Below, piece after piece: positions 4,342-34,634 of a DNA stretch of 34,634 nt. A model generated the notes under the pieces. It searched no databases, was not told the DNA's origin, and saw nothing but the letters and a program-made list of their open reading frames with translations. Made by a program: the position numbers and the translations under genes. The DNA comes from a virus. Taxonomy: Duplodnaviria; Heunggongvirae; Uroviricota; Caudoviricetes. Within the stretch, counting starts at the first letter, position 1; each line of letters opens with the position of its first letter. The stretch is from the IMG/VR virus record IMGVR_UViG_2541047873_000007. One strand, written 5' to 3'.

Positions 4342-5222
4342 ACACTCCTCGTCAGTATTCTGGCGGCCATTGCACTTAATCCCGGAGACATGCGGTTGAA
4401 TGCTGTGCCGGCGGCGTTAAGCTGCCCGGAAACGGTATCCAGAGCACCTGCAATATTTCTTTTGTCCACACCACTCAGCGCAGACTGTGCCTGCTGTACA
4501 TACGTGGCTGCTTCGCTGGCTGTTCTGGCCAGACTGATGGCATCGGGCATGGATTCAGAGAGTGCGTTAAACGCCGGAACACTTTTCCCCAGAGCCCCGG
4601 AGATATTACCCAGTCCGCTCATCAGCCCCGGCACACGGGTCAGTGCGACAACGGGGTTATCCTTCATTTTCTGTGTCACCCGAACGGCGCTGATAGTGGT
4701 CTGGAGTACAGACTGCGCCTGTTTCGCATAGTTGACGCCGTTGCGGATGAACTGCGCCACCCCTGAAGGTGAAGGAATGGCACCGGAGACCGCCCCGACA
4801 CCCGGGAGCTTCGTGCGTATTGCCGGTGGTTGCAGAGGATTTTTCGGATCACCGGTGTATTCCCGGAGAGACACGGTGGCACTGACAGCCAGCACGTTAC
4901 CGGTGCTGTCTGTCTGCTCGCTGGTTGCGGTCACATCGGTAATCACGAACCAGCCACGATAGTCACCGTTGCCGAAGACCAGCGCCAGTGCCTGATGGGC
5001 TTTCATGGCTGTTCGCAGTCTCGCCAGCTCCACATCGGGTACACAATAATGCTGATGGAAAACCAGAGTTATCTGGATTTCGTCCAGCCTGTCGCCGACG
5101 AACTGCAGGCCAGGCTTACCCCCGATGCGGGCATGCTCCGCATAATCGACGCCGAACGTGGCCTCGAAGCCGTCCCAGTAGGTAATCAGCTCAAACTCAA
5201 TATCACCCAGTACGGCAAACAT
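4338..5222 (-). CDS. Tail protein (Mu N / DNA-circularisation-like)
   Basis: 294 aa immediately downstream of the tape measure, co-directional and overlapping. Confidence 0.5.
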   Translation of the reverse strand: MFAVLGDIEFELITYWDGFEATFGVDYAEHARIGGKPGLQFVGDRLDEIQITLVFHQHYCVPDVELARLRTAMKAHQALALVFGNGDYRGWFVITDVTATSEQTDSTGNVLAVSATVSLREYTGDPKNPLQPPAIRTKLPGVGAVSGAIPSPSGVAQFIRNGVNYAKQAQSVLQTTISAVRVTQKMKDNPVVALTRVPGLMSGLGNISGALGKSVPAFNALSESMPDAISLARTASEAATYVQQAQSALSGVDKRNIAGALDTVSGQLNAAGTAFNRMSPGLSAMAARILTRSV

Positions 5223-8200
5223 CAGCGGTACTCCTTACGTTGTTTCTGAGCCAGCAGACGCTCCAGCATTTTTTCCAGCTCATGCAGGCTCATATTCAGG
5301 GCGCCAGTCAGTCCGGCAGGCGCTGTGGTTTCCCTGCCATTGAGGAAAAACTGAGGATTAAAGCTGACCTGGATACCACCAGACGTTCCACCGCCGGTTG
5401 CAGCTGCACCACGGCCTGAATATCCGGCAGCCAGGATTTCAGGCGAGGGGATACGGGGAACATCCGGTGTCATCTCATTTGCCAGACGTTGCCCTGGTAA
5501 AATCGATGCCCGGGTGGAGAGCGGAATAGCGGGCATGGAAGACAAACTATTGATTACGGCTCCGATCGCATTTTTAGCAGACGACATAAACCCATTGATA
5601 TCGGGCAACGGCATACTGAAGCGAACACCTGAAGTGTTATCCCGTATTTCTGGCCCCTGAATGCTCACGGGCATTTTGGGGAGCAGTTCACTGGCCATTC
5701 GCTGCCCGGCCAGAGCTGCAAGCGGAGTGGTCCGCTGCAGGCCAATGGCGGCCCCCTGCGCGATATTGTCACCAAAGCCCATAAACACGCGGCTCGGCGA
5801 ATGAATGCCCAGCTTTTCGCTGAACCAGCCACTGATGCTGTCACCCATTCCGGTTACACTGGATTTGAGCGACTCCCATTTGTTTTTGATACCGTTAATC
5901 AGACCGTCGACAAGATGGCCACCGAAGTCGGTGAACTTTGCCGGCAGATCAACACCAAGATATTTCAGCGCAGCTGCAAAGGCTTTATAGAGCAGACCTG
6001 CCGGCGACCAGTTAATCAGCAGCTTACCAGTTCCCGCGATACCGCCGTTAAAGGCTTCCTGAATGTCAGCCCAGCACTGTTTAAACCAGCTACTGATGCT
6101 GTCACCCATTCCGGTTACACTGGATTTGAGCGACCCCCATTTGTTTTTGATACCGTTAATCAGACCGTCGATAAGATGGCCACCGAAGTCGGTGAACTTT
6201 GCCGGCAGAGCAACGCCGAAATATTTCAGCGCAGCCGCAAAGGCTTTATAGAGCAGGCCTGCCGGCGACCAGTTAATCAGCAACTTACCAGTTCCCGCGA
6301 TACCGCCGTTAAAGGCTTCCTGAATGTCAGCCCAGCACTGTTTAAACCAGCTACTGATGCTGTCACCCATTCCGGTTACACTGGATTTGAGCGACCCCCA
6401 TTTGTTTTTGATACCGTTAATCAGACCGTCGATAAGATGGCCACCGAAGTCGGTGAACTTTGCCGGCAGAGCAACGCCGAAATATTTCAGCGCAGCCGCA
6501 AAGGCTTTATAGAGCAGGCCTGCCGGCGACCAGTTAATCAGCAACTTACCAATTCCCACAATGCCGCCGTTAAAGGCTTCCTGAATGTCTGCCCAGCGCT
6601 GTTTAAACCAGCCACTGACTGCCCCCCAGTTGCGGTAGATAAGGTAAGCTGCTGCCGCGACAGCGGTGATAACGAGACCGATGGGATTCATCATCAGCGC
6701 ACGTCCAATCCAGAGAACAGCACGTCCGGCGAGCATAATTCCGCGAACCAGCCCCCCGGAGAGCACGCCACTCAGTGTTCTGGCTCCTTTGGCGACGGCG
6801 CTAAATCCGGTCACCAGCCAGCGGAGCTTACCGCCTTGCCCCAGTGCGAGCGACAGACGAAGCCAGTTGGCCCGAAGTAAAACAGCATTTTTCCAGACAC
6901 TTACAAAGGGGGAAATAAGGAGATTCAGCCCCAGTTTGAGACCAACAGTCGCTATCTTAATCGCAAGGAGCGCACTGATGAGCTTAAAAGCCCCACTGAC
7001 AAATTGCGGGTGAGTCGCTACCCAGTGTTTTGCCCCCTGAATGAGTGGAAGCAGTTCCTGAGTCAGAGAAATAAAAGATGGAGCTAATTGATCGCCCAGC
7101 GTAATTGCCAGATCACGACTGCTGACCATAAGTGCTTTAGTGGCTTCAAGGGGAGATTTCAGCCGCTGATCATAAGCACTGGCAAGCAAATCGTTATCCG
7201 CAGCCCTGAGAGCACCGGCACGGATCTCTCGATATCTGTCCATGTTGGCCAGCATCGGGCGGATAAATGCCATGACCTGCATATCCGCGAACATATCGCC
7301 CAGACCAAAGTTTTTCGCCAGAGCCTGAAGTGCCTCATCTCTTGCCGTATCATTCTTTATTTTCATGGCTGATTTGAAGCCGGCCAGCGCTTCGGGGCTT
7401 TTGGCATTGAGGTAACGTTCTATAACACTCAACATCCCTTCAATCGGAGAGATCCCCGCAGCTTTATAACTCGCAATAGATCCCTGCAAATCAATACCCA
7501 GATCAGCAAACTGTTTCTGAGTATCGCGGGCAAAAATTTTGGTAAGAAAGTTTTTAAAATTATTGGCTGCTTCGTCGGTGGAACCTGCACCGATTTTTGC
7601 TATCTGGAGACTGGCCCCGATTTCAGCAACAGCCTCTTTTCCACTGGCAATACCCGCCATCATTGGGGCCAGGGACTGCATCCACTTGACCTGATCCGGG
7701 ATTTCAAATGACCCCTGGTCACCGGCATAAGCCATAATATTCTGAACGGCACCAAAATCTCTGGCCGCACCTTTCAGGGAGTTTTGCCAGACTGCGGCCA
7801 CTTTTGCCCAGTCCTGAGCAGACGTGCGTGTTGCCGTTGCCGCGCGGGCAATATCCGGCATCAGAAAACCGATATCTGACACATTATCAATATTGTCGCT
7901 GATGAGTGAACCCACCGCCTCCTGCAGCTCATCCTGATACTGATTGTATTTAAGCGCCCAGCCTTTTATCTGTCCGGCAAGTGCATCCCGCGTTTTATTG
8001 TCATATTTTGCGGTGATCGACATATCAATCATTTTGTCCTGAAAAGACATGGACTGCTGAACGGCAGGGGAAACCGTATGATAAACAGTCTGTGCCATGC
8101 CATACGCTTCAATCCCCTGACCATACAGCGCCATGCGGTTAGCTTTCAGCGCATCACTGGTAGCGGATGCCGCTGACAGACGGCGCTGCTGGCGCTCAAT

Positions 8201-21962: not shown

Positions 21963-22313
21963 TTAAAGCCCCATCGCAACAGCCAGGCAGACCGCTGCAA
22001 CAATCAGTGCACGGCGGATTAACGCAGCAGAAAACACCAGGTGAAGGCCGGTCTGTACCGGGAAACGCCCTTCAGCCATCAGCCTGTCGTCATGTTTCAG
22101 GTACTGACCGGGACGGGCTTTGGGGAAGAGCGAACGGTCAAGCCAGTAACCCAGCACTGCTGCCAGCGTGATGAGTGCCAGCTTGTAGATCACAACAGGC
22201 AGCTGCTGTGGTGAGACCAGAGCGATGGTGCCCAGCAACAGCACTGAGGTCAGCAGCCAGCCGCTGAGGCGAGGTTTTTTAACAGGGGGAATGAATTTTT
22301 TCAGGTTTTTCAT
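21963..22313 (-). CDS. Holin candidate (three predicted transmembrane segments)
   Basis: 116 aa from ATG 22313 with AAGGAG 7 nt upstream; three hydrophobic helices; immediately upstream of the endolysin. Confidence 0.45.
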   Translation of the reverse strand: MKNLKKFIPPVKKPRLSGWLLTSVLLLGTIALVSPQQLPVVIYKLALITLAAVLGYWLDRSLFPKARPGQYLKHDDRLMAEGRFPVQTGLHLVFSAALIRRALIVAAVCLAVAMGL

Positions 22314-22363
22314 GTGTGTCTCCTTATCTGGTGGAGACAGCATCACAAATACAGGGCGCGAAG

Positions 22364-22386
22364 GATTTTAAAGCGCGTTAAGAGAG
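22364..22386 (-). promoter_or_regulatory. Late promoter/activator-site motif C (GATTTTAAAGCGCGTTAAGAGAG), upstream of the holin/lysis operon
   Basis: Shares GATwTTAAAG...TTAAGA with A and B; 51 nt upstream of ATG 22313. Confidence 0.45.
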
Positions 22387-22443
22387 CCGGGGATACGGGA
22401 TGTGCAGGATAAACGATGAATTATTCACAGAGGAGAATACGAT

Positions 22444-22920
22444 ATGACGCACACACTGAATCCGGTCATCACTGTCACTGTGTCCGGTCCTGTGGGCAGC
22501 GGTAAAAGTTACGTACTGGCGCGGATAGAAGAGATGGTGAAACAGGAACTCGGAAACAGCGTCATTGTCGATGCTGCTGACGTGGAGAATGAGCGCCGTA
22601 TGAATGGCGAAGATCTGACGACCTGGCAGAAGCCACGGGGTGGCACAGTGATCAGGCTGGAGGAATACACGGGACAGGGCCTGTTGTCATACGGCGAGGA
22701 GCGTATCTGTCGGACGAATGAGCTGCTGGATGTTATATGCCCCACGGGCCGGCAACCCTGGATACTGCCCGATGCACTGCATGCCACCATTGCGGCACTG
22801 ATGACAGTTTACGATCAGGAGCTGCTCATGAAGGAGTTACGTAAACTCACCGGTCAGCCAACAGAATGTTGTTCGTCTCCGAAGTACGGCAAACAGGAAA
22901 ACGCCCCGGATAATCCTTAA
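22444..22920 (+). CDS. Small P-loop NTPase-like protein with Cys-rich C-terminal half
   Basis: 158 aa; Walker A GPVGSGKS, candidate Walker B SVIVD; GAGGAG upstream of ATG 22444; convergent with the membrane-protein operon. Confidence 0.5.
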   Translation: MTHTLNPVITVTVSGPVGSGKSYVLARIEEMVKQELGNSVIVDAADVENERRMNGEDLTTWQKPRGGTVIRLEEYTGQGLLSYGEERICRTNELLDVICPTGRQPWILPDALHATIAALMTVYDQELLMKELRKLTGQPTECCSSPKYGKQENAPDNP

Positions 22921-22939
22921 GATACCTCCTGAACAGAAA

Positions 22940-22955
22940 CAGCCCTGAAGGGCTG
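22940..22955 (-). terminator. Hairpin CAGCCC-TGAA-GGGCTG between the convergent accessory genes
   Basis: Perfect 6-bp stem directly after the stop of the 196-aa gene; minus strand then reads TTTCTGTTC. Confidence 0.4.
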
Positions 22956-22957
22956 CA

Positions 22958-23539
22958 CTAAAAAAAGAAGTGTATTATTGCCCAAACAGCTATAACGATG
23001 ATTCCCAGCCCAAGAGCCGATTCTAACTTATCTTTGGCAGTCATTTTTACTGTTGTAGCGGGCGCAGGTAAGTCTTGCTGCTGTGGATTTTCTGTTAGTT
23101 GTTTACGAGAAGAAACATCGCCCCTGTTAGTTTGCTTCATGTTGATTACAGATGCGTTATGGGCATTATCAGCAGCAATTGACTGAAGTTTTACAAAAGT
23201 TTTTGAATCTGTTTTAGCCAGAAGTAACCTATTTCCCGTAAACATTGCCTTAAAAGTGATAGTTTTTTTCGTCTTGTCCGCCGCACCAAGCAAACCTCCA
23301 ATGACCAACCCTGCACCACCAAAGATTAATCCACCAAGCAAACCTGCGCCTGCCGCCTTACCTATACGGCTTTCCTCTTCACTATCCGCAAGTTCAATCG
23401 ATAAAAGCTCTTCTTTCAGATTTAATACAATATTTTCAGGAAAGCCTTGTTTTGGTTTTTTGGCAAACACGATGGTACCGAACCCCATGCTTGCCCACCC
23501 TTTAGGAAAACTTCCTGCGATAACCTGAATCCCTGCCAT
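22958..23539 (-). CDS. Membrane protein with glycine-zipper segment (accessory)
   Basis: Central GKAAGAGLLGGLIFGGAGLVIGGLLGA and C-terminal LGLGIIVIAVWAIIHFFF hydrophobic segments; likely start ATG 23539 (AAGGTG 6 nt upstream), the track start 23548 being a GTG. Confidence 0.5.
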   Translation of the reverse strand: MAGIQVIAGSFPKGWASMGFGTIVFAKKPKQGFPENIVLNLKEELLSIELADSEEESRIGKAAGAGLLGGLIFGGAGLVIGGLLGAADKTKKTITFKAMFTGNRLLLAKTDSKTFVKLQSIAADNAHNASVINMKQTNRGDVSSRKQLTENPQQQDLPAPATTVKMTAKDKLESALGLGIIVIAVWAIIHFFF

Positions 23540-23629
23540 GTTCATCACCTTTTACATTAAAATTTCAGAACGCAGCATGATGCCGCCTTTGTCTTTTTTC
23601 TGATCCCATGGTAATTCAGCTGTTATTTT

Positions 23630-24616
23630 CTATTTAAGAATAAAACGGTATTTACTGTCAGGAGTGCTTTGCTGATCAAGTAGCAGTGAACGACATGGAG
23701 CAGTCAAAACCCGAGCATAACTACCATCAGGGCTTATGTTAATGTAACAAACCTTGCCCTTAACACTATAATTTTCGGGGACGGATGCCTTTGCTGATAC
23801 AGTAAATTTAAGGGTATGCCAGCCCGTTTTTTGCTTGTAGCTTGAAACCGAATGGAAATCATCTGAGTACTTATTTAACCCTGGAAACATGCTGCGCAGT
23901 GCGGGGATGGAATCTTCTATTATTTTATCGTTGGTTTTAATGTTAAAAACGCTGGTTTCAGTAGAAGCTACTGCTTTGGCATTTCCCCATTTACCAGCGA
24001 ACACAATCATTCCCACGAAAAATATTGCTACAAGAACTAACACTCCCCCCAACACTACTACATGAGGCTTCCGGCTTCTGGTTGGTACAGTTGCGACTGA
24101 TTTTGCACCGCTTTCCGATGGAGGTGATAGAGTTTTACTCTCATCACGAATATTCAGCAGATCATCAAAATAACCAAACACAGCCTGCAACTGCTCTTTG
24201 TCTAGGCCTTTAAGATGGGTTGTACCGAAATGCTTCAGACAGTATCTGTCACGGTCAAGACGATACCCAGGGTCAGTAAGCGCCATTATTTTGCTGACCA
24301 GAAGATTACAGTCCTTCATATTCTGGATCTGTTGTGCATATCTCTGAAGGATCTCAACCGCACCATGATAATCAGCCGCAGTCATTTCATTAACTGTTTT
24401 GGTATTAAGTTTCGTGTGGATCGTCATCCATAGCTCGCGCTTACTTTCCCCCAGATCAACCAATTCATCCATCAATCTGTGTAAATCGCGTTTTTGCAGC
24501 AACGAAATTGGTTGCTGGGCCGAAGGAAGTATGTCAGCAGAATAGTTATGAATGGTAACATCACCGCTGACAACGTTACCCACATCCCCGTTAACTGTTT
24601 GCTTCTCTTTACTCAT
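23630..24616 (-). CDS. Single-pass membrane protein with cytoplasmic N-domain and extracytoplasmic C-domain (accessory)
   Basis: 328 aa; transmembrane segment VVVLGGVLVLVAIFFVGMIVFAG; ATG 24616 overlaps the repressor stop (ATGA); AT-rich. Confidence 0.5.
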   Translation of the reverse strand: MSKEKQTVNGDVGNVVSGDVTIHNYSADILPSAQQPISLLQKRDLHRLMDELVDLGESKRELWMTIHTKLNTKTVNEMTAADYHGAVEILQRYAQQIQNMKDCNLLVSKIMALTDPGYRLDRDRYCLKHFGTTHLKGLDKEQLQAVFGYFDDLLNIRDESKTLSPPSESGAKSVATVPTRSRKPHVVVLGGVLVLVAIFFVGMIVFAGKWGNAKAVASTETSVFNIKTNDKIIEDSIPALRSMFPGLNKYSDDFHSVSSYKQKTGWHTLKFTVSAKASVPENYSVKGKVCYINISPDGSYARVLTAPCRSLLLDQQSTPDSKYRFILK

Positions 24617-25074
24617 CTTCTCTTGGTATTTTTGTTCATTATTCCACCTGTTCCTATGGTTACGTTACCTTTGATAACATTCCCCAGAACATCTCCATGA
24701 ATAACCTGTTCCGCCCGTTCTCTGGAGGAGCCAGTAGTCAAGGCCGACAAAACTGAACCTTTGACCTGTAATGGTGCCTGCCGGTAGTGCTGCAGTAACT
24801 CCATTTCATCACGTGATAAAGTTATACCTGATGACTCCCCGGTAAGAATGAACTGTACATTGGCCCCAATTCTTGCAAAGGCTGCAAGTAACTCACCTCC
24901 GGGAACAGCAACCCCTCGTTCATATTTCCCCCACATTTCTCTTGAAACGCCACAAAGGGCTGCTACTTCAGCCTGCTTGAGTGATAACCGCGAACGCTCA
25001 GCTTTGAACCGCGACGCGCAAAGAGAATCAAAATTCACATAAACCTCATTGACAATGAGAACAATAGTTCTCAT
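24613..25074 (-). CDS. XRE-family HTH repressor (phage c-like), non-LexA-type C-terminus
   Basis: HTH LSLKQAEVAALCGVSREMWGKYERG; divergent from the ner-like gene; no S24 peptidase motif visible. Confidence 0.7.
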   Translation of the reverse strand: MRTIVLIVNEVYVNFDSLCASRFKAERSRLSLKQAEVAALCGVSREMWGKYERGVAVPGGELLAAFARIGANVQFILTGESSGITLSRDEMELLQHYRQAPLQVKGSVLSALTTGSSRERAEQVIHGDVLGNVIKGNVTIGTGGIMNKNTKRR

Positions 25075-25077
25075 AAT
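25049..25077 (+). promoter_or_regulatory. Early promoter Pe candidate (TTGACA-17 bp-CATAAT) for the ner-to-mor operon
   Basis: Consensus -35 at 25049-25054 and near-consensus -10 at 25072-25077; RBS AAGGAG and ner ATG follow at 25113 and 25125. Confidence 0.55.
25055..25074. promoter_or_regulatory. Operator candidate: palindrome ATGAGAAC-AATA-GTTCTCAT
   Basis: Perfect 8-bp inverted arms spanning the Pe spacer and including the repressor start codon (revcomp of 25072-25074). Confidence 0.45.
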
Positions 25078-25124
25078 CTATCACATATAAAACAAACATC
25101 ATTGCATCAACAAAGGAGACAACA

Positions 25125-25313
25125 ATGACTTCCGAACAAGTTAAAAATCTCTTCCGTCAGCGTGGTATCACGTTTACCCGCTGGGCCGAAGAACACGGCT
25201 ACAGCCGCAATGAGGTCTATCGTGTTCTCAATGGACAGACCAAAGCTCGTTACGGCAAAGCCCATGAAATTGCCGTAAAACTGGGATTAAAACCCACGTC
25301 AAATGCGGCATAA
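25125..25313 (+). CDS. ner: Ner-like DNA-binding regulator
   Basis: 62 aa, ...FTRWAEEHGYSRNEVYRVLNGQTKARYGKAHEIAVKLGL..., Ner/Nlp-like; AAGGAG RBS; divergent from the repressor. Confidence 0.8.
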   Translation: MTSEQVKNLFRQRGITFTRWAEEHGYSRNEVYRVLNGQTKARYGKAHEIAVKLGLKPTSNAA

Positions 25314-32580: not shown

Positions 32581-33030
32581 ATGCAGAAAAAACGCCTGAT
32601 ACAGCTTATCCATATTGCCCGTAATGAACTGGGTATGGATGAAGACACCTACCGCCAGATGTTACAGGGGCTGACCGGTAAAGCCTCAACCAAAGGAATG
32701 GATACCACACAACTAAACTGCGTGCTGGAATCCATGAAAAAGAAAGGCTTTCGCGTTAAACCAGCCAGAAAAGCCAGCTCCGGTTTACCGCTGGATAACC
32801 ATCCGCAGTCCAGGAAAATTCGTGCGCTATGGCTTGAAATGGCTGCTGCCGGCATTGTTCGTGACCGTTCAGAAAATGCATTAGCGAGGTGGATCAAGCG
32901 GGAAACGGGCATCAGCGCCCTGCGCTGGCTCAGTACTGAACAGGCAAGCAGTGTTATTGAGAAACTGAAGAAGTGGCAGCGCAGAGCTGCGGGAGTCAAA
33001 CATGAGCGACCTGAATCAGTTTCGAAGTAA
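32581..33030 (+). CDS. GemA-like regulatory protein (Mu gp16 family)
   Basis: 149 aa; position immediately upstream of mor; AGGAG RBS. Confidence 0.65.
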   Translation: MQKKRLIQLIHIARNELGMDEDTYRQMLQGLTGKASTKGMDTTQLNCVLESMKKKGFRVKPARKASSGLPLDNHPQSRKIRALWLEMAAAGIVRDRSENALARWIKRETGISALRWLSTEQASSVIEKLKKWQRRAAGVKHERPESVSK

Positions 33031-33391
33031 GGGGCCGGAACTCCTGGTGGAACTGGCACAGCATACCTCTGAGACCGTTCGCGAGATTATTGATATTGAG
33101 CCCGAAGTTGCCGACCAGATTGGTCAGGCCGTCGCGAACCGAATGATGCAGGTCTGGGGCGGGCAAAACGTTTATTTCCCGATGGGCATGGTATGGAAGG
33201 TCAGTCAGCGCGACCGGGAAATCTTCAGGGAGTTTAACGGACGCAACCACCACGAACTGGCCCGCAAATTTGGTGTTTCGCTTCAGTGGGTCTACAGCGT
33301 GGTTAAGCGGGTAAGAAAAGAAGAACTGGATCGGATGCAGGGCAAGCTATTTGCTGATGAACCCGATGCAGATACGGAGAAAAAAGAGTAA
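33002..33391 (+). CDS. mor: Mor/C-family transcription activator
   Basis: 129 aa; C-terminal ...QVWGGQNVYFPMGMVWKVSQRDREIFREFNGRNHHELARKFGVSLQWVYSVVKRVRKEE matches the Mor/C HTH region. Confidence 0.8.
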   Translation: MSDLNQFRSKGPELLVELAQHTSETVREIIDIEPEVADQIGQAVANRMMQVWGGQNVYFPMGMVWKVSQRDREIFREFNGRNHHELARKFGVSLQWVYSVVKRVRKEELDRMQGKLFADEPDADTEKKE

Positions 33392-33478: not shown

Positions 33479-33553
<75 letters not shown>

Positions 33554-34634
33554 CCCAGACCGGCCAGGTGTGCGGCATAAACAGTACTTCCGCGTCGTTA
33601 CCCCACATATCCAGCGTTTCGTTCAGGTACTCGGTCCACTTGCTGGTATCGCGGGTTTTCGCGCCGCGCAGAGTGTAGAAGTTGTGCAGGGTATGCGTGG
33701 CGTTCTCGGCGGTACACAGGGCTTTCAGGGCCGGAATATAGAAGTGCATTTCGGCTGGCGCTTCGCTACCCGGAGTCATCAGGAAGTCAAACTCCAGGCC
33801 GTCGATAATCATCTTCTCGCCAGTTCTGACGATAGTTTTAGTCGGTGCAATAATGCTCGGGTCGCCGGTTGCCAGCGTCACGCCCAGGCCATTACCCACG
33901 TTGCCTTGCGCGTTGTGCGGCAGTAACAGACCGTAAGAGTAGAGCGCACGGCGGCTCATAATATTACCCGCCAGCACGTTTTCGCTGATGGCTTCGTCCA
34001 TAAAGCCTGCCGGAGCGATCACCTGCACTTTGCCGGATTTAACATCCGCTTCAGAGATAATGCCTTTCACACCGCCATAATGGTCGGCGTGGCTGTGGGT
34101 GTAAATAACAGCAACAATCGGTTTTTGCGGACGATGTTGGAAGTAAAGGTCAAGTGCGGCTTTTGCGGCAGGCGGCGTCACCAGTGGGTCGATAACAATA
34201 ATGCCTTTCTCGCCCTCAACGAATGTAATGTTAGAGATATCCTGGCCGCGCACCTGATACATTTTATCGGTGACTTTGAACAGGCCAGAAATGCCGTTGA
34301 TCTGCGACTGACGCCACAGGCTGGGGTTTACGGTTTCCGGCGCAGCGGCATTAATATCAAATTTGTAATCATTCGCGCGGTAGTAAACTTTGCCGTTAGC
34401 ATCACGCAGAATACCTTCATCCAGCAGCGGGGCGATAAATCCACGCTGGGCATCGTCAAAATCTTGACGATCGCTAAACGGTAATGATTTGGCGTAATTC
34501 TGATTAATCTGTTGGGTATATTGAGTGGCGGCTTTCGCTTCATCTGTTGCGTAAGCGGTATTTACCATCATGCCGCTGGCGGCAGTTAACGCAATAACAA
34601 TCCTGCTCAAACGGAATAACCGAGAGTTATTCAT
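33554..34634 (-). pseudogene. yjcS: Host MBL-fold alkyl/aryl-sulfatase gene (YjcS/SdsA1-like), 5' portion only
   Basis: Signal peptide [29 protein letters not shown] and metal site [11 protein letters not shown]; frame ends after ...HTWPVW with 10 codons of prophage-end sequence, far short of a full-length enzyme. Confidence 0.7.

Follow-up and report, generated by a model that had tools for sequence, protein, structure and literature searches.

What can a phage protein do that carries an intact phosphate-binding loop (P-loop) in a chain too short for a typical kinase or AAA+ protein? The question is raised by a 158-residue P-loop protein encoded at positions 22444-22920 of IMG/VR virus record IMGVR_UViG_2541047873_000007, a stretch of 34,634 nucleotides that was analysed at its full length and is called the window below. 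The window is a BcepMu-like transposable (Mu-like) prophage of E. coli, and an initial annotation, made from the letters alone, had described the protein as an orphan. We find that its N-terminal part is a miniature P-loop domain of about 72 residues, and that this is a natural domain family, new in lacking both a Pfam model and a literature. The features of the gene on which the argument depends are the following.

22430-22435, plus strand: Shine-Dalgarno sequence GAGGAG, in which AGGA is invariant across seven diverged loci that were aligned
22444-22920, plus strand: coding sequence (CDS) of the P-loop gene, 158 residues, ATG at 22444 and TAA at 22918-22920, a member of PHROG 3787
22444-22668, plus strand: N-terminal minimal P-loop domain, residues 1-75, from profile search, alignments, conservation counts and AlphaFold2 (AF2) models
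22486-22509, plus strand: Walker A motif GPVGSGKS, residues 15-22, kept in every relative down to 27% identity
22558-22572, plus strand: SVIVD, residues 39-43, the second beta-strand, whose Asp is not conserved
22645-22665, plus strand: last strand TVIRLEE, residues 68-74, which closes with the near-invariant Glu74
22693-22857, plus strand: helical "module C", residues 84-138 (containing PDALHATIAALMTVYDQELLMKELRKL), from BLASTP, AF2 helices and substitution rates

The protein matches PHROG 3787 with an E value of 2.1e-107 and 359 bits, and its residues 1-157 align with positions 1-157 of the profile. The profile has 242 positions and models a longer isoform, so that the window protein ends at profile position 157. 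This family is without annotation and without a Pfam or NCBIfam model. When 1.84 billion representative proteins were searched at a cut-off of E < 1e-3, the family profile gave 67 matches, corresponding to 67 clusters at 50% identity, and all of 26 diverse domain sequences match PHROG 3787. Furthermore, the 700 base pairs (bp) around the P-loop gene were found in 571 of 5426 complete E. coli genomes (about 10%), every time in the chromosome. The protein can thus no longer be called an orphan. Relatives among sequenced phages are scarce; tblastn against a phage collection recovered one close homologue, in Escherichia phage PhiKM, and very few distant ones. A genome scan was dominated by generic P-loop matches, including at least one false ABC transporter, and yielded one useful locus (Citrobacter) and one alphaproteobacterial stand-alone member.

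The open reading frame (ORF) is a genuine gene, as shown by its ratios of nonsynonymous to synonymous substitution rates (dN/dS), by a strong ribosome-binding site and by its carriage in those 571 genomes. Its start, stop and frame were all verified in the sequence, and the strong ribosome-binding site of the initial annotation is the GAGGAG located 8 nucleotides 5′ of the ATG. Among five alleles compared in pairs, dN/dS is 0.07-0.30 over residues 1-75 and 0.17-0.42 over residues 76-138 in 9 of 10 pairs; the remaining pair, the window copy and PhiKM, has only one difference in the latter region. The low ratios in both halves argue that the gene is translated and under purifying selection. The initial annotation had set the protein apart from housekeeping kinases and unexpressed reading frames, and this distinction stands, since no kinase, ABC or AAA+ model fits it and purifying selection is seen.

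Most of the profile matches cover positions 1 to about 75 only, in proteins of 71-364 residues, which makes this the one stretch that the wider family has in common. The domain is found either as the N-terminal part of longer proteins (156-364 residues), whose remainders are unrelated or mosaic, or alone in proteins of 71-90 residues. It consists of a strand, the motif GxxxxGK[ST], a helix, a strand, a loop with E50-R51 and W61, and a last strand ending at Glu74. Eleven stand-alone proteins end no more than 2 residues from Glu74, which fixes the domain boundary. Conservation was counted over 64 diverged domain sequences. Within Walker A, G20 and K21 are present in all 64, G15 in 62 and Ser or Thr at position 22 in 61 (Asn in the other three); the GPVGSGKS that had been picked out by eye at residues 15-22 is therefore no chance motif. 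The helix keeps I28 (57/64) and L32 (60/64), the loop E50 (56/64), Arg or Lys at position 51 (50/64) and W61 (49/64), and the last strand T68 (49/64), L72 (49/64) and E74 (63/64). The proposal that SVIVD is a Walker B motif did not hold up. The motif is present at residues 39-43, but position 43 is Asp in only 19 of the 64 sequences, being Glu in 10, Val in 12 and Ala in 8. With D43 in 19 and E74 in 63, the acid under selection is Glu74, and this residue of TVIRLEE, which follows a predicted strand, is on sequence grounds the better candidate for a Walker-B-like acid. One metagenomic protein of 159 residues (P0087) has a PG_binding_1 domain (E = 4.7e-15) fused N-terminal to the mini P-loop; this protein is a singleton, and the viral contigs related to it carry the stand-alone P-loop domain only.

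Structure prediction is in line with this layout. A first AF2 model, built from a 16-sequence alignment, was unusable, with a predicted local distance difference test (pLDDT) score of 47, and showed a strand at residues 41-46. A second model from 32 sequences gave the N-domain a pLDDT of about 70-76, with a strand at 8-14, a helix at 21-39 and a strand at 69-75; the strand around residues 39-43 is reduced there to a 2-residue trace, and the C-terminal half forms helices at 83-98, 110-122 and 125-136. A Foldseek search of the AF2 model against the PDB returned nothing significant. Against BFVD, the sole significant match is a 72-residue viral protein (A0A516MII4) with 34% identity and a target-normalised template modelling (TM) score of 0.65. 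As it superposes at this score, an independent model of a stand-alone member agrees with that of the N-domain. Weaker BFVD matches (E = 0.01-0.03) are P-loop-like proteins of 83-106 residues from jumbo Erwinia and Ralstonia phages, one of these small proteins bearing the name "deoxynucleoside kinase domain-containing", and proteins of this kind could be commoner among phages than the present family by itself would suggest.

As in the P-loop superfamily, the Walker A at residues 15-22 lies between a beta-strand and an alpha-helix, and the protein does not have a complete alpha/beta core of at least five parallel strands. The N-domain is a genuine Walker A strand-loop-helix with two further strands, without a complete nucleoside triphosphatase (NTPase) core. 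Profiles from Pfam, NCBIfam, PADLOC and PDB sequences match it only below threshold, in the strand-loop-helix region (ABC, AAA, kinase, UreG, PilT and others). Among the matches of the PDB profile search are the designed "phosphate-loop protein" 6c2u (E = 5e-4) and a de novo ATPase. The initial annotation had judged 158 residues too small for a typical kinase or AAA+ protein, and the conserved unit is smaller still, at about 72 residues.

The C-terminal half has a history of its own. Module C recurs at the C-termini of two other proteins (P0034 and P0036) and as two stand-alone proteins (P0066 and P0068), with BLASTP E values of 1e-9 to 1e-12. The window copy consists of the N-domain, module C and a 20-residue tail, and a 141-residue form likewise joins the N-domain to module C. 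Close relatives come in four lengths, of 247, 158, 141 and 182 residues; the approximately 90 extra residues of the 247-residue form, "module D", are likewise found elsewhere. Locus L008, a BcepMu-like prophage with a domain of 32% identity, has an 88-residue domain ORF followed by separate ORFs of 161 and 76 residues, which are homologous to C-terminal parts of the fused proteins with E values down to 1e-36. The same pieces thus occur both fused and split, an argument for joint action of the mini P-loop and the helical modules. The initial annotation had remarked on a Cys-containing C-terminal half. The cysteines are there, at residues 89, 99, 142 and 143, but this half is a shuffled helical module and not a metal site: it has no CxxC, C89 and C143 vary among close relatives, and the 141-residue form is without C142 and C143.

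The isoforms also record recombination and loss. The 182-residue form (L016/L017, 5001-5549) is without residues 52-124, including the strand with the invariant Glu, and is found on 22 contigs, and E. coli assemblies hold many frameshifted fragments of the gene (protein fragments P0033-P0055). These observations indicate frequent decay of the P-loop gene in resident prophages. At the 3′ end of the window copy we recognise the following feature.

22909-22939, no strand assigned: recombination joints, from pairwise blastn, a break in guanine-plus-cytosine (GC) content and protein alignment

By blastn, the long-isoform phages remain homologous up to 22908/22909, 12 nucleotides before the stop codon, and homology to a second 158-residue lineage (83% identical, with other downstream genes) extends to 22939. 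GC content falls from about 55% in the P-loop gene to 40-45% over 22930-25300. The junction of the window type was found in 97 genomes, all of them at least 99% identical, as against 499 genomes for the 3′ end of module D (247- and 182-residue forms). The joints, the GC break and these genome counts identify the 158-residue protein as a derived, shortened minority isoform, which to judge by the alignments arose when a low-GC immunity module, joined on by recombination, took the place of the 3′ end of the majority 247-residue form.

In contrast to its variable 3′ end, the 5′ end of the gene is fixed in position. In the enterobacterial cases that we examined (the E. coli 247-, 158-, 141- and 182-residue forms, Citrobacter braakii and L008), the P-loop gene starts 100-130 bp from the holin gene and diverges from it every time, whereas the content downstream is variable, with Dam methylases, small minus-strand ORFs of various kinds and several types of repressor. 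In the window the Pfam model Holin_2-3 matches the ORF at 21963-22346, for which the RefSeq CDS is 21963-22313, and the two divergent genes enclose one further feature.

22314-22443, no strand assigned: divergent control region of the holin and P-loop genes, 130 bp, from an alignment of seven loci with protein identity down to 32%

This region contains a conserved block of 22 bp, GGATTTTAAAGCGCGTTAAGAG, at 22363-22384, which is kept even in the prophage with the 32%-identical domain. The minus strand of the block reads TAAAAT without a good -35, and the hexamer is likely the -10 element of an activator-dependent (Mor-dependent) late promoter.

Outside these prophages the stand-alone gene takes other positions. 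On two Mu-like contigs (L034 and L032) it is located where the early region ends, close to GemA-like and Mor-like ORFs as read from their translations; in Acinetobacter-type elements it is found a few genes upstream of TerS/TerL (L003 and L004 by Pfam, L026 by ORF reading), and in a marine prophage directly before the integrase gene. The homologue of 73 residues in L003, a prophage of Acinetobacter bereziniae, stands between plus-strand terminator-like hairpins at 5835-5853 and 6242-6255 in an otherwise tightly packed operon (2 terminators found against 0.4 expected), a moron-like arrangement. BcepMu itself has no P-loop gene. Klebsiella "phage KP12_2" (OM835952, L038) has no P-loop domain at the same holin-adjacent site (4446-4829), and this site holds an unannotated ORF (..KTYTLSVDASCPTEAIAELRNAL..) resembling one of the C-terminal modules that are fused to the P-loop domain elsewhere; its record is classified under Vequintavirinae and the clone looks BcepMu-like. 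On this comparison of sequences, the P-loop gene is fixed in position and optional among related phages, and appears as a dispensable accessory gene of the BcepMu-like prophage.

The remainder of the window is organised as follows. The nearest sequenced phage is PhiKM, of the genus Bcepmuvirus. A minus-strand late operon spans about 22346 down to about 324 and begins with the holin, an SLT transglycosylase and lysis-accessory genes. The plus-strand early operon is driven from a near-consensus sigma-70 promoter (TTGACA-17-CATAAT, 25049-25077), which overlaps the start of the divergent repressor gene and is the expected Pe/operator region. Its products are a BcepMu gp16-family protein, an IclR-type helix-turn-helix (HTH) protein, a DUF3102 protein, an rve transposase, an ExeA-type protein, Gam, GemA and a Mor-family activator (33002-33391). 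Past the Mor gene, a minus-strand gene for a protein of the metallo-beta-lactamase fold (33522-34634) runs off the right end of the window and is probably host DNA flanking the prophage end.

Between the P-loop gene and the early promoter lies a block of 40-45% GC (22930-25300) inside phage DNA of 55-63% GC, starting about 10 nucleotides past the stop codon. As the initial annotation had it, the P-loop gene is convergent with the repressor operon, a three-gene minus-strand operon at 22958-25074. The genes encode a 196-residue Gly-rich, Gly-zipper-like membrane protein (22958-23548), a 328-residue membrane protein (23630-24616) with a Flk_N-like N-terminus (NCBIfam Flk, E = 2.9e-12) and an HTH_31 repressor (24613-25074). 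A GDV-GNV--G-VTI motif, encoded at 24613-24720 and 24540-24616 on the minus strand, is common to the C-terminal end of the repressor (..VIHGDVLGNVIKGNVTIGTGG) and the N-terminal end of the protein from the next gene (..VNGDVGNVVSGDVTIHNY), and these two genes overlap by 4 nucleotides. The whole block looks like an imported immunity or moron module and occurs in only 97 of the 5426 E. coli genomes. A functional link of the P-loop gene to the membrane-protein operon, which had been suggested from their adjacency, is rejected: the operon belongs to a foreign low-GC module that was not found beside the gene in relatives, where the same gene adjoins quite different downstream modules. One further feature separates the two.

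22939-22956, minus strand: hairpin ACAGCCC-TGAA-GGGCTGC (in plus-strand reading), from a terminator scan and RNA folding

The hairpin had been taken as a terminator shared by both transcripts. It is indeed GC-rich and lies where it was placed, but the terminator scan called it on the minus strand only. The minus-strand RNA folds at -19.8 kcal/mol (z = -3.8) and is followed by the U-rich tail UUUCUGUUC, whereas the plus-strand RNA folds at -13.1 kcal/mol and is followed by CACUAAAAAAA; with a U-rich tail on one strand only, it is not shared. It is part of the imported module and acts, as a site resembling an intrinsic terminator, for the minus-strand membrane-protein/repressor operon only.

What, then, might the protein do? 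The explanation that we favour, and put forward tentatively as a whole, is that this accessory gene is built on a minimal P-loop and acts as a ligand-binding oligomer in conflict or host takeover. Temperate phages would use the domain of about 72 residues either alone or fused to interchangeable short helical modules. The P-loop would bind a phosphate-bearing ligand, most likely a nucleotide, with Lys21 and Ser22 holding phosphates and Mg2+ and with Glu74 serving as a Walker-B-like acid. Since three strands and one helix cannot make a full NTPase core, action as a homo-oligomer or docked to a partner is probable, for which R51 is a candidate trans-acting arginine and the helical modules, module C in this case, may supply the contacts to partner or target. 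Such oligomeric or partner-dependent action would parallel that of designed P-loop polypeptides of 40-55 residues. A role in phage-host or phage-phage conflict, or in host takeover, within a hypervariable accessory locus is the most probable, and one in the core lytic programme is less likely. The dispensability of the gene, its frequent decay, its mosaic C-termini, its place at the edge of a hypervariable region and its early or accessory positions elsewhere lean to host interaction or conflict. A related possibility, which we consider unlikely, is that the beta-(P-loop)-alpha-beta-beta unit, closed by a catalytic Glu, is autonomous, an oligomer that binds, sequesters or hydrolyses a nucleotide or nucleotide-derived signal, and that temperate phages use it early, by itself or with exchangeable helical modules, for counter-defence or host takeover, perhaps in the manner of a nucleotide "sponge" or switch.

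Several observations weigh against the favoured explanation of a ligand-binding accessory protein in conflict. What leans toward conflict is mosaicism and genomic context. The best match among the PADLOC-DB v2.0.0 models (SngB) has an E value of 0.007 and covers the Walker A region only, so that no defence family is indicated. A search of the literature by accession and PHROG identifier found nothing on the P-loop gene or PHROG 3787. In the control region no sigma-70 promoter for the gene was found by scan or by eye. One sub-branch of the family carries GAESSGKN or GAENAGKN, with Ser replaced by Asn and Pro-Val by Ala-Glu, and these substitutions suggest that catalysis may not always be needed. 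Finally, the phage-core GC content and the fixed position of the gene fit a core regulatory role as well as an accessory one.

The last point is the starting place for a reading in which the protein regulates the lytic programme, acting on the late promoter or the lysis cassette, for example on Mor-dependent transcription or lysis timing, by a nucleotide switch. The gene has a fixed position, about 130 bp from the holin gene and divergent, in Escherichia, in Citrobacter and in the 32%-identity relative; the intergenic region contains the conserved 22-bp block, the GC content is like that of the phage core, and in other phages the gene stands where early and late regions meet, shortly before TerS/TerL or close to mor/gemA. 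We nevertheless regard regulation of this kind as very unlikely. The same late operon exists without the domain in BcepMu and KP12_2, the prophage already encodes a Mor activator, and the 182-residue form, having lost the invariant strand and its Glu, is still present on its 22 contigs. The protein has no DNA-binding motif and is acidic (pI 5.0), and the one fusion to a peptidoglycan-binding domain typical of endolysins, which might have pointed to lysis, was set aside as a singleton. A gene that is dispensable and often decayed, and that adjoins a hypervariable accessory region with Dam methylases and small membrane proteins, could also be a prophage defence or abortive-infection toxin, that is, a small P-loop NTPase expressed in the lysogen that kills, arrests or blocks superinfection in a Walker-A-dependent manner, perhaps together with the membrane proteins. 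P-loop NTPases are common in defence systems, and the stand-alone relative bracketed by terminators has the arrangement of a moron. The PADLOC result given above speaks against a toxin as well, no partner antitoxin is conserved, and the membrane-protein operon is foreign, of low GC, confined to 97 genomes and unlinked to the gene in relatives. Moreover, stand-alone relatives lie inside the early operons of Mu-like phages, where a gene of benefit to the phage (early or anti-defence) fits better. We think a toxin, the model implicit in the initial annotation, improbable.

Two further readings would take the P-loop at less or more than face value. In one, the window copy is a functionless remnant: recombination took the last approximately 90 residues of a 247-residue protein, and the rest hitchhikes in a recently spread prophage. 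The departure from the majority form 12 nucleotides before the stop, at the GC break, would be expected in this case; the 97 junction copies are so similar that they offer no evidence of selection, and in E. coli the gene is often met as frameshifted fragments. The second 158-residue lineage argues otherwise, since at 83% identity it keeps the stop codon and gives a dN/dS of 0.28 against the window copy. The natural 141-residue form shares the architecture of N-domain and module C, the N-domain by itself makes a viable protein in numerous phages, and frame, start codon and ribosome-binding site are intact, so that we find a remnant quite unlikely. In the other, the protein would be a conventional enzyme, an ABC ATPase, a small nucleoside or nucleotide kinase, a zeta-type kinase or an AAA+ protein. 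It is entered in RefSeq as "ABC transporter ATPase" (WP_000149906.1), and it gives weak matches to ABC_tran, guanylate and uridine kinase, Zeta_toxin and AAA families. Every one of these is far under its curated cut-off and confined to residues of about 4-60. ABC_tran scores 13.6 against a cut-off of 25 bits over residues 4-49, and NCBIfam ABC models score 14-15 against 266-875 bits; guanylate kinase scores 12.9 against 263 bits and uridine kinase 12.5 against 180, with only the strand-loop-helix aligned. AAA_30, AAA_22 and AAA_16 reach 13-18 bits against 27-33 over residues 11-53, in a protein that is too short for the AAA+ module of about 220 residues and without a lid domain, and the Zeta/PezT toxin kinase model PF06414 reaches 12.6 against 22.3 bits over residues 11-47. 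A KAP assignment was likewise rejected, the curated libraries giving a sub-threshold match to Walker A only. With no LSGGQ, no LID and no nucleoside monophosphate-binding region in a conserved unit of 72 residues, a conventional enzyme is effectively refuted, and the RefSeq name is an over-annotation.

If nucleotides are indeed bound or hydrolysed by the unit of about 72 residues, the unit would be a natural P-loop that functions at a size well under that of all characterised NTPases. It would then bear on the origin of P-loop enzymes from short oligomerising peptides and be a new domain family missing from Pfam. Should it prove to be an autonomous oligomer, it would represent the smallest natural family of P-loop NTP-binding domains, a living counterpart of the designed prototypes. 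The gene also delimits, on its fixed side, a hypervariable accessory locus of the prophage in which small uncharacterised modules are shuffled, and such a locus is a plausible place to look for functions in anti-defence or exclusion. If the gene is inert, the practical result is a corrected annotation, for a misleading name is at present attached to a gene in about 10% of complete E. coli genomes.

Comparison with known systems places the gene and its domain between several classes. The gene resembles phage morons in being optional among related phages (it is absent from BcepMu and the domain from KP12_2), in bordering a highly mosaic region and in its orientation opposite to both neighbours. 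It differs from them in having the base composition of the phage core and a 5′ end and control region that are fixed in position; in the window, moreover, no sigma-70 promoter was found for it and the hairpin serves the other strand. With ABC ATPases the protein shares Walker A and the helix that follows, but it is without the Q-loop, the LSGGQ signature (there is no SGG), the Walker B/D-loop and the H-loop. Compared with the kinase-GTPase class (dTMP kinase, uridine, pantothenate and APS kinases, phosphoribulokinase), it is without the LID, the substrate-binding domain and strands 4-5, and its conserved unit has 72 residues as against at least 150 in the P-loop kinases of that class. The closest parallel in size is found among designed proteins. 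Designed beta-(P-loop)-alpha polypeptides of 40-55 residues bind nucleoside triphosphates and nucleic acids as oligomers (bioRxiv 10.1101/2020.07.30.228619). The phage domain is acidic, so that polynucleotide binding is less likely for it. The P-loop prototypes (PDB 6c2u/6c2v) and the de novo P-loop folds (2lvb, 5gaj, 9jix) are laboratory constructs derived from consensus sequences, whereas the phage domain is natural and under selection, and it has in addition a further strand that ends in a near-invariant Glu and a conserved loop with E-R and W.

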